A DNA stretch of 64,000 bases. Origin: an uncultured Actinomycetes bacterium. GTDB lineage: Bacteria; Actinomycetota; Thermoleophilia; UBA2241. How positions within the stretch are numbered: position 1 is the first letter of the stretch; each line of letters begins with the position of its first letter. The translations under genes were made by a program, and so were the position numbers. Shown piece after piece: positions 35,317 through 36,723 of the stretch. The notes beneath the pieces are model-generated. The model worked only from the letters and a program-made list of their open reading frames with translations. It was not told the DNA's origin and made no database searches. The stretch lies in the NCBI GenBank assembly GCA_963709345.1, contig CAVPVX010000002.1:352001-416000 (forward strand). The letters run 5' to 3'.

Positions 35317-36723
35317 TCAGTAGTGCAGTCCGGTCTTGTTCTTGAACTGCTCGACGCAGTTGATCTCGATGTCGAGCAGCTTGGCGATACGAGCCTTCGC
35401 CGCGATGCCCTTGGCAACGCCCGGCACACCCGTGATCGTCCCGATGTCGAGTTCTTCCCTGAGAAGCCGCATCGTGTGGGGGTCACTGAGGTCCAGTGGG
35501 GTCACGTGGAGCTTGTCGGCGACGTACTTCTTGGCTTCGTCGATCCTCATCTTCTTGCTGAGCTGCATACGAGCAACGAGATCTCCCGCTGCCCGGATGC
35601 CGCCCATGGACGAGGCCAACAGATGGGCCATGTGCATGCCGGCGGGGTCACCAGTGCCCACCTACAACCCGTCGGCCTTGCCGATCTCGATCATGGCCGC
35701 ACTGCAGCGGGTCACGACGTCGACCGCGGGGGTCTCGAACATCGGCACACCGCCGACGCCCATACCGACGTTCGGGTGGATCGGCACCTTGGCGATGTCG
35801 GTGCAAGCCTTGACGAAGACGAGCGCCTTGCCGAGGTTCCACGGCGTGGACTTCTTGGTGTTGGTGGTGCTGACCGGACCGAAGATCGAGACGCCGGCCT
35901 CCTCGCACACCTGCAACTGCTGGTGCGGCCACATGCCGGCCAGCCGCTTCCCGTTGTACTCGATGGTGCCGTGGATACCGGTCACCATCTCGGTCGACAT
36001 GCCGATCTCGACCGGCAGCCCCGTCTCCTTGGCGACGTGCTCGGTGCTCTTGAGCACTGCGGCGAACTCACCGTCGCCGGTGGAGGCCACGGTGTCGTAG
36101 TCGATACCGTCGGCGCCCATCTCGACCATGCAGTCGCTCATCTCGATGCAGTCCTCGAGGCACTTGGCGCCGGCTGCCTCCTGCGTCTCCCGCGACTCCT
36201 TGATCTTGCCCTGCTGCATGAGGTCGTACGGGTTGTCGAACGGGCCGTCGCTCTTGAAGTATAGGCCCAGGTTCGGCATGAACCCGTAGAGCAGCGGGAA
36301 GATCGTGGTCTCCATGAGGATCTCGACGTGGAGCATCTCAAGCTTCTTGAGGAAGCGCTGCGGCTTGACCGAGTAGTCGTTGTGCGAGACTTCCATCGAG
36401 TCGAAGCCGAGCATGGACTCGTAGAGCCGCACGCCGACCTCGCGGTTGACCGGAGCGACGACGCCGCTCGAAATCTGCGACGAGTTCAGCGCGTTGACGC
36501 AGCCGTCCTTGGTCATGACGACCTCGTTGCCGCGCTGCACGCCCCAGATGCGCGTCGGGGCGGCGAACACGTCCACGAGCCAGTCGATCTCGTTCTCGGT
36601 CAGAGGCGGAACCTTCGCCTTCTTGGCCGCGAACTCCGACCCGTCGATGAACTCCTGGCGGAGCTCGTCCATGGTGAACTCGACGTTCGAGTTGTCACCC
36701 ATTCTCGTCAGGATCTTTGCCAT
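35317..36723 (-). CDS. mtbB: Dimethylamine:corrinoid methyltransferase MtbB, 468 aa, with an in-frame amber (pyrrolysine) at residue 354
   Basis: ORFs 35662-36723 and 35317-35661 are in the same frame, separated only by TAG 35662-35664: ...[15 protein letters not shown]...EIGKADGL-[TAG]-[30 protein letters not shown]...LREELDIG...AKGIAAK. This matches the MtbB DG(I/L)O(I/V)GxGDP context. Confidence 0.93.

Follow-up and report, generated by a model that had tools for sequence, protein, structure and literature searches.

An amber-containing mtbB paralogue within a putative choline-type demethylation gene cluster of a Thermoleophilia genome

In MtbB methyltransferases, pyrrolysine (Pyl), inserted at an in-frame amber codon (UAG), binds a secondary amine so that its methyl group can be transferred to a Co(I) corrinoid protein and from there to tetrahydrofolate (THF). 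The present analysis concerns an mtbB paralogue with such a codon in a stretch of 64,000 nucleotides (positions 352,001 to 416,000 of contig CAVPVX010000002.1, assembly GCA_963709345.1; hereafter the window) from an uncultured bacterium of the Thermoleophilia, lineage UBA2241, where it lies in a gene cluster resembling known choline demethylation systems. In Eubacterium limosum, the phosphocholine formed from choline by the kinase MthK is the substrate that MthB demethylates (Jiang et al., 2025, PMC12155760; this and the other papers cited here are drawn on as far as their available portions go), and Sporomusa malonica is named in the same paper as co-localising mthK and mthB. A Pyl-free MtmB homologue, MtqB, demethylates choline and tetramethylammonium (Kashyap et al., 2026, PMC13044021), and Methanococcoides demethylates choline fully to ethanolamine via the di- and monomethyl forms (review PMC7374477).

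Pyl-encoding mtbB in Actinobacteriota is known in outline since 2023, when expression of mttB and mtbB with Pyl codons was reported for some metagenome-assembled genomes of this phylum (Ellenbogen et al., 2023, PMC10805028); among the active methylotrophs of that study is the genus Bog-752, placed under UBA2241 in its supplement. Two Actinobacteria are also found among the 81 bacterial genomes with a pyrrolysyl-tRNA synthetase (PylRS) in the surveys covered (Guo et al., 2022, PMC9630628; 2025 review, PMC11764691). The statement of an earlier sequence-only reading of the window that Pyl use is little documented in this lineage is therefore fair, but the trait had already been reported.

The amber codon of mtbB and its decoding

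The gene and its amber codon are located as follows.

35317..36723, minus strand: mtbB paralogue of 468 aa with Pyl at residue 354, identified by profile matches and read-through score
35662..35664, minus strand: in-frame TAG (Pyl codon), codon 354

Running on the minus strand from an ATG at 36723 to a TGA at 35319-35317, mtbB has 468 codons with one in-frame TAG, in the context GAC GGG TTG TAG GTG GGC ACT GGT GAC CCC. The codons thus confirm what the sequence-only reading had described, two same-frame open reading frames (ORFs) split by one TAG and giving 468 aa with the amber at residue 354, and place it on the minus strand. Likewise, both halves are intact MtbB sequence and the amber is at the MtbB Pyl site, as had been claimed: the halves match Pfam PF09505 at 4-353 and 355-463, with the TAG filling exactly column 354, the read-through product matches TIGR02368 over its full length with 475 bits (cut-off 369), and the same Pyl column carries TAG in mtbB homologues from other phyla. 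Around Pyl (O), bacterial MtbB homologues show the motif DGL-O-(I/V)G(V/H/S/T)GD. Standard gene calling splits mtbB into ORFs of 353 and 114 aa, just as anticipated. The genome had been described as having about 70% GC, which holds for the contigs (68.9-70.1%), while mtbB itself is lower at 63% (GC3 0.91).

Fifteen PF09505 matches in the source genome comprise ten long genes with one TAG each, one frameshifted gene in four pieces with TAG and one fragment at a contig end. In 11 of 11 amber-spanning copies the TAG is found within the motif DG(L/Y)-TAG-(V/I)G. Orthologues of the window gene (at least 77% identity) occur 34 times among 50 family genomes, with one TAG each. Because of this shared motif and the single TAG in each of the 34 orthologues, the codon is, on sequence grounds, neither chance nor a sequencing error, and by every sequence test applied the gene is a real Pyl-encoding mtbB and a member of the MtbB family. 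MtbB matches were found in 48 of 50 well-assembled family genomes, at 1-11 per genome, and all 150 matches listed contain TAG (168 further matches lie outside this list). Paralogues within the family number up to 11 and have diverged at 44-63% identity; in a 37-row tree, the clade of the window MtbB stands apart from the other ten copies, with a support of 100/100 and a stem length of 0.44.

An AlphaFold model of MtbB (13-row alignment, pLDDT 82) predicts a TIM barrel at residues ~64-397, with residue 354 in the strand 352-355. Since the predicted barrel spans the TAG, termination there would truncate it, and neither half should form a domain of its own. The best structure matches of the model are the barrels of MetH, MtaA and BHMT (Z 18.2, rmsd 3.7-4.0, ~260 aligned residues); MtmB and MttB are not among the matches listed in the fold searches, which rules nothing out, and a sequence search found no solved MtbB structure.

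The source genome (3.11 Mb in 11 contigs, 98.06% complete, 1.45% contamination) supports the Pyl code expansion proposed in the sequence-only reading, as pylB, pylC, pylD, pylT, pylSn and pylSc are all present on contig C11 (11672-19259), with 427, 280, 213, 122 and 318 bits for pylB, pylC, pylD, pylSn and pylSc at curated cut-offs of 348, 248, 150, 51 and 178, respectively. The tRNA-Pyl gene with its CUA anticodon is located at 14991-15063 of this contig, adjoining pylD, and is the only CUA tRNA found by ARAGORN at default threshold, which calls it tRNA-Pyl; Rfam gave no match over this region. Only pylSc lies on the opposite strand; it and pylSn are oriented towards each other, separated by genes for a radical SAM protein and a corrinoid protein, and pylD ends in TAG just upstream of pylT. 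It is practically certain from the gene, the codon position and this machinery that full-length MtbB is made by UAG read-through with Pyl: the codon would be decoded by Pyl-tRNA(CUA) supplied by the genome's own pylBCD, pylSn, pylSc and pylT, resulting in the complete protein, a predicted TIM barrel.

TAG still ends 574 of 2714 predicted genes (~21%; about 20 of these are Pyl gene halves, and the gene finder is crude), hence UAG is ambiguous in this genome, being both Pyl codon and stop codon at ~21% of stops. TAG stops are not depleted in comparison with genomes without Pyl, their share being 20.5% here versus 21.5 and 22.7% in two pylSc-less relatives (200 kb each, crude gene finder). The MttB family (PF06253) is represented by 64 matches (35 longer than 1 kb), nine of them with TAG at the MttB Pyl site, and both MtmB-family genes of the genome lack TAG. 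Several MttB-family matches are in frameshifted pieces, which may be assembly indels. In genome G053, an MttB 55% identical to a Pyl-MttB query has no internal stop and lies beside a TAG-bearing copy (C4:793890-795347), possibly a recent loss of Pyl. A coding-score screen for further Pyl proteins (44 TAG candidates, 52 TGA controls, mostly adjacent in-frame genes) yielded no convincing case outside MttB and MtbB, though it missed several true mtbB and thus excludes nothing. Three TAG-ending ORFs with a coding-like continuation and no obvious new start (C2:429060-429242, C7:520602-520928 and C7:237648-238286) may be further Pyl genes or else gene-finder artefacts. A tRNA for selenocysteine (Sec) is encoded at contig C1:120215-120312, and the genome probably uses both Sec and Pyl. 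TGA codons inside four MttB matches, considered as Sec codons, turned out to be upstream stops caught by the alignment start, and a TAG inside the PylSc match of genome G068 is its terminal stop.

The order consists of one family (89 genomes, 11 genera), and pylSc was found in 82 of these genomes and in all 11 genera. In a sample of the class (n=301), it was present in 46 of 49 other genomes of the same family, in 7 of 44 of a second family and in none of 207 genomes of ten more, whereas a phylum sample (n=401) gave two genomes with pylSc, both Thermoleophilia. Closest to the PylSc of the window's genome (67-88% identity) are mostly records titled Thermoleophilia or Actinomycetota, with two titled otherwise (57 loci), which agrees with the actinobacterial lineage suggested earlier; relatives from Firmicutes and others come next at 47-56%. 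Neither pylSc nor mtbB was matched in two small near-closed genomes of the same genus (G023 and G024; 1.7-1.8 Mb, 98% complete), suggesting that the genes were lost as the genomes shrank, and another genome (G045, 93% complete) has a TAG-bearing mtbB and no pylSc match. The sequence-only reading was right about the gene but did not include its strand, the order-wide scale, the about 20 Pyl genes and the choline-type cluster.

Codon context and RNA structure around the UAG

Three further features surround or follow the amber codon.

35665..35670, minus strand: 5' context GGG TTG, a rare Leu codon fixed before Pyl UAGs
35645..35670, minus strand: possible 7-bp hairpin enclosing the UAG, weakly indicated (conserved, almost no covariation)
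35571..35594, minus strand: downstream hairpin (core 35574-35591), equivalent to stem two of the Rfam model PYLIS_2 and showing compensatory changes at synonymous positions

The Pyl UAGs are marked on their 5' side by Gly-UUR, a context under selection. In the source genome, Leu preceding the Pyl TAG is encoded by TTG in 16 of 16 cases (10 mtbB and 6 mttB, two mttB pairs sharing an identical context), compared with 20 of 756 other Leu codons of these genes. Among 58 gene ends with Leu-TAG, TTG occurs in 15, of which 14 are Pyl halves, leaving TTG at only 1 of 44 true stops. Order-wide, Leu before the Pyl UAG is UUR without exception in three unrelated gene families, with 47 of 47 mtbB (one more has Tyr; background TTG 17/1274), 22 of 22 mttB (eight more have Ala; background 9/588) and 11 of 11 mtmB. 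The second Thermoleophilia family with pylSc uses TTA, not TTG, in 7 of 7 cases, and mtbB from other phyla, mostly lower-GC genes, show UUR in 13 of 13. Moreover, the Gly at position -2 is GGG in 42 of 48 mtbB and 22 of 30 mttB contexts versus 18% genome-wide.

Avoidance of CTAG was rejected as the cause of TTG: the tetranucleotide is rare (obs/exp 0.23), but CTG TAG does not contain it and occurs 24 times at true stops. The UUR context may be due either to an effect of the P-site tRNA on release factor 1, which has a precedent in E. coli, or to the short hairpin GGGUUGU/GYGACCC. No title on a UUR-before-UAG rule was found in the literature covered, which leaves out most subscription papers. 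In mttB, codons +6, +11, +21 and +24 after the TAG have A or T as third base in 83-100% of 30 otherwise strongly GC3-biased genes, a possible sign of an RNA element in mttB, for which a consensus fold could not be clearly made out.

Downstream of the codon, the Rfam model PYLIS_2 (RF02509) matches from the UAG onwards with 60.2 bits (gathering threshold 36), a score owing partly to conserved coding sequence. The helix 73-90 nt after the U of the UAG is the strongest-folding window of mtbB. In an alignment of 45 mtbB regions (23 orthologues left from 43 after de-replication, together with 22 paralogues and outgroups), a pair of two synonymous third positions is kept in all 45 (CG 22, UG 16, GC 7) and a second synonymous-site pair in 42, with 15 double changes. 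Cells with double changes amount to 37 in the hairpin against 13.9 after shuffling, with none of 500 shuffles reaching 37, whereas the counts of pairs and of pair types are not above those of the shuffles. Controls slid along the alignment are lower on pairing and covariation score, although 30 double-change cells were counted in one of them. When the whole gene was scanned in 16 orthologues, this hairpin was the sole 7-bp helix at least 95% paired and with double changes. The downstream hairpin is under selection in mtbB; its role could be in read-through, pacing or mRNA stability. That the Gly-UUR context and the hairpin act in read-through has about an even chance.

In orthologues, the 7-bp hairpin around the UAG shows 99% pairing and no double changes, and in other phyla it is often broken; possibly it is one reason for UUG. 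A longer stem enclosing the UAG (z -3.2 in the window mRNA) was discarded as a general signal, as it is not kept in paralogues.

The gene cluster and the candidate substrate

In the window, mtbB is one of nine co-directional genes: DeoR regulator, kinase, non-Pyl MttB, corrinoid protein, non-Pyl MtmB, metallophosphoesterase (MPE), APC permease, Pyl-mtbB and HAD hydrolase. The remaining eight, a promoter match and four unrelated features of the window are listed below.

34577..35242, minus strand: HAD-family hydrolase with 37-40% identity to the one next to the kinase-MttB pair of Sporomusa
36884..38635, minus strand: APC-family (amino acid permease) transporter
38716..39663, minus strand: calcineurin-like metallophosphoesterase
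39882..41264, minus strand: non-Pyl MtmB-family methyltransferase without TAG; Ile, or Asn one column over, at Pyl202
41302..41949, minus strand: cognate corrinoid protein
42097..43548, minus strand: MthB-like protein of the MttB superfamily without Pyl, having Leu at the Pyl334 position
43545..44762, minus strand: APH/homoserine-kinase-like protein, MthK-like (candidate choline kinase)
44875..45636, minus strand: DeoR-family regulator heading the cassette
45726..45753, minus strand: sigma-70-like promoter match, 11/12, by consensus only
9752-11566: NERD-nuclease and helicase (unrelated)
21930-24887: UvrD-type helicase (unrelated)
28940-31432: amidase with FlgD-Ig repeats (unrelated)
55487-55567: tRNA-Gly (unrelated)

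The Pyl columns were read against structures, Pyl334 of MttB in 7XCL and Pyl202 of MtmB in 1L2Q. An orthologue of the MtmB (at least 81% identity) is present in 62 of the 89 family genomes. In 20 loci, from 20 of these 62 genomes chosen for long contigs, the set DeoR-MttB-corrinoid protein-MtmB is found in all 20 and the kinase in 19, and in 11 the 17-kb locus also includes mtbB. In ten additional regions, which come from nine of these genomes or from their kin, mtbB is nearby, often inverted, together with extra PF01633 choline/ethanolamine kinases and an uncharacterised 270-aa gene. Across 50 genomes, each at least 85% complete, both the MtmB and the MtbB orthologue occur in 34, MtmB only in 2, MtbB only in none and neither in 14; as kin are not independent, the nominal Fisher value overstates this association. 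Where both are present, they lie less than 20 kb apart in 22 of the 34 genomes, inversions notwithstanding, and on separate contigs in the other 12. The 270-aa protein, which has no Pfam match and recurs with the phosphoesterase and the APC permease, is encoded at L195:3394-4206 and L196:9183-9995 in two of the loci and has six homologues elsewhere in the source genome. Contigs of three RNA libraries from three studies cover 27-30 of 30 cluster bins, mostly at 85-99% identity; they stem from relatives, may include DNA and have small word shares, and are not counted as evidence of expression.

In S. malonica, the sole match to the window kinase (38%) directly adjoins the best match to the window MttB (66%); genes for a HAD, a corrinoid protein and an MthA-like protein lie close by. 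The window kinase and MttB are thus candidate counterparts of MthK and MthB, indirectly via S. malonica: the likeness of the kinase to the MthK in Fig. S5 of Jiang et al. (PMC12155760) is by eye only, and no E. limosum entry is among the best 120 of 2982 matches. Three MthB-like proteins (P0021, P0063 and P0079) are fused to corrinoid-binding domains, either real fusions or assembly artefacts.

With a probability of roughly 0.5 for the reading as a whole, substrate included, we take the gene to encode a Pyl-MtbB with a cis-marked UAG, serving the secondary-amine step of a choline-type cassette. Phosphocholine would first be demethylated by the MthK-like kinase and the MthB-like protein, a step shown in E. 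limosum. A further methyl group might be taken by the non-Pyl MtmB homologue or by a Pyl-MttB encoded elsewhere in the genome, both being candidates, and the phosphate would be removed by the phosphoesterase or the HAD protein. Pyl-MtbB may then handle the secondary-amine end product of the cassette, that is, it would demethylate N-methylethanolamine or its phosphate to ethanolamine. FTHFS, RACo and, outside the cluster on contig C3, a 33% homologue of MthA are present in the source genome. More tentatively, a broad N-demethylation toolkit built on Pyl chemistry can be envisaged across this order of anaerobic Thermoleophilia, in which an MtbB for a non-simple methylamine completes a phosphorylation-coupled route from choline to ethanolamine, and in which a cis code of Gly-UUR (E and P sites) plus the mtbB hairpin biases the ribosome to Pyl while a fifth of the genes stop at UAG.

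Several points weigh against the reading of a cis-marked, choline-linked MtbB. The linkage of MtbB to the cassette is seen in one family only and hence reflects shared descent; among 251 genomes of another phylum, neither an independent lineage with the same cluster nor an orthologue of the MtmB was found, and the one mtbB detected there has no kinase or MtmB neighbour. Two genomes carry the cassette without the window-type MtbB. As S. malonica has the kinase-MttB pair and no mtbB match and E. limosum stops at dimethylaminoethanol (PMC12155760), the cassette works without MtbB, and as MtqB acts on quaternary amines, the tertiary-amine step has no assigned enzyme. Acetyl-CoA synthase, present in 25 of 40 family genomes, was not found in the source genome; methyl groups may therefore be oxidised rather than turned into acetate. 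Regarding the cis signals, mtmB from other phyla use CTC before the UAG in 7 of 11 cases, and Pyl insertion is described in the part of PMC13663744 covered as needing no insertion element, with local context effects allowed for.

Among the alternatives, an MtbB for plain dimethylamine survives best, though it is to be regarded as doubtful. The enzyme would then be one of 11 isozymes, placed beside the cassette through induction in amine-rich conditions or a shared corrinoid protein. It passes the cut-off of TIGR02368, an equivalog model for dimethylamine:corrinoid methyltransferase, no MtbB substrate other than dimethylamine is named in the portions of literature covered, and the MPE-APC-MtbB block is often inverted or apart from the cassette, in some cases with a DeoR gene to itself. 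However, such a function hardly explains the near-perfect co-occurrence with the cassette (34/2/0/14) or the long stem branch of this clade, and a paralogue clade found beside Pyl-mtmB in relatives is a better candidate for the role. Moreover, PFL/CutC-type and EutB lyases, which could release free methylamines, were not found in the source genome.

Rather unlikely is a third possibility, in which the substrate of Pyl-MtbB is a different N-methyl secondary amine that the APC permease imports, such as an amino acid or amino alcohol with a methyl group; MPE-APC-MtbB would then be a separate module. Phosphoesterase and permease do lie directly upstream of mtbB in the relatives examined, often with the 270-aa gene, and MtbB has up to 11 diverged paralogues at 44-63% identity in the family; but the cluster kinases are of choline/ethanolamine type, and the linkage of the block with the choline cassette is kept. 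It is very improbable that the TAG stems from a nonsense mutation or a sequencing error, or that the gene is naturally split and re-starts at the GTG directly after the TAG, despite several frameshifted mttB and mtbB copies in the assembly, given the same TAG column across all orthologues and paralogues, the complete pyl set and a 114-aa tail that is predicted not to be a separate domain. Least credible of all is a genome-wide recoding of TAG to a standard amino acid, in favour of which no evidence was found and against which stand the 574 of 2714 genes ending in TAG, a share as in the two pylSc-less relatives, and the single CUA tRNA (ARAGORN default), called tRNA-Pyl and adjoining pylD.

Significance and comparison with known systems

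The question of how cells distinguish Pyl UAGs from stop UAGs is not settled, and current papers assume plain competition without any obligatory signal. In a genome of 70% GC whose roughly 20 Pyl genes belong to unrelated families, selection at synonymous sites is easily seen, and UUG versus CUG before the UAG offers a one-nucleotide test that also bears on amber suppression in biotechnology. What is added to the earlier reports on Actinobacteriota is that the trait extends through the order, that the substrate is probably non-canonical and that the cis signals can be tested; the 82 pylSc genomes in this one order match the 81 bacterial PylRS genomes in the covered part of the 2022 survey (PMC9630628). 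Enzymes taking choline beyond dimethylethanolamine are not identified in the literature covered, and the cluster supplies named candidates. No title on a choline-linked MtbB was found in the literature covered (most subscription papers being outside coverage). If the proposed function is true, Pyl enzymes act beyond mono-, di- and trimethylamine, and the lineage competes with methanogens for methyl groups.

Compared with the MtbB of Methanosarcina and bacterial homologues (PF09505, TIGR02368), the window protein has the same length, the full profile, the UAG at column 354 and the PYLIS_2 match. In contrast, it is 44-46% identical to homologues from the class Desulfitobacteriia and belongs to a long-branch clade, 11 mtbB copies are present in the source genome versus 1-3 in those Desulfitobacteriia-class genomes having mtbB, and the gene is associated with a choline-type cassette, not with mttB/mtmB or pyl. 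With regard to the PYLIS elements (RF02509; PMC3639795, as far as covered), the downstream hairpin corresponds to the second stem of PYLIS_2, here with compensatory synonymous changes, while the 5' UUR context is outside the Rfam model, which begins at the UAG. Like the Deltaproteobacteria described as using both Sec and Pyl (PMC8318568), the source genome has tRNA-Sec and tRNA-Pyl, split pylSn/pylSc and multiple Pyl methyltransferases, but it belongs to another phylum and has about 20 Pyl genes versus up to five mttB copies in the part of that study covered.

As in the MthK-MthB-MthC-MthA system of E. limosum, a serine-kinase-like gene has genes for a non-Pyl MttB and a corrinoid protein as neighbours, and kinase, MttB and HAD are 38, 66 and 37% identical, respectively, to the proteins of S. 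malonica. Unlike in the MthK/MthB system, kinase and MttB are co-directional here, MthA is absent from the cluster, and the non-Pyl MtmB, phosphoesterase, APC permease and Pyl-MtbB are added. With MtqB of Methanococcoides methylutens Q3c (PMC13044021, in the portion available), the window MtmB shares the family without Pyl, the position directly downstream of a corrinoid gene and the link to choline, a likeness by family and gene order only; its closest relatives outside the Thermoleophilia (~70%) include proteins named from Deltaproteobacteria and Syntrophales.

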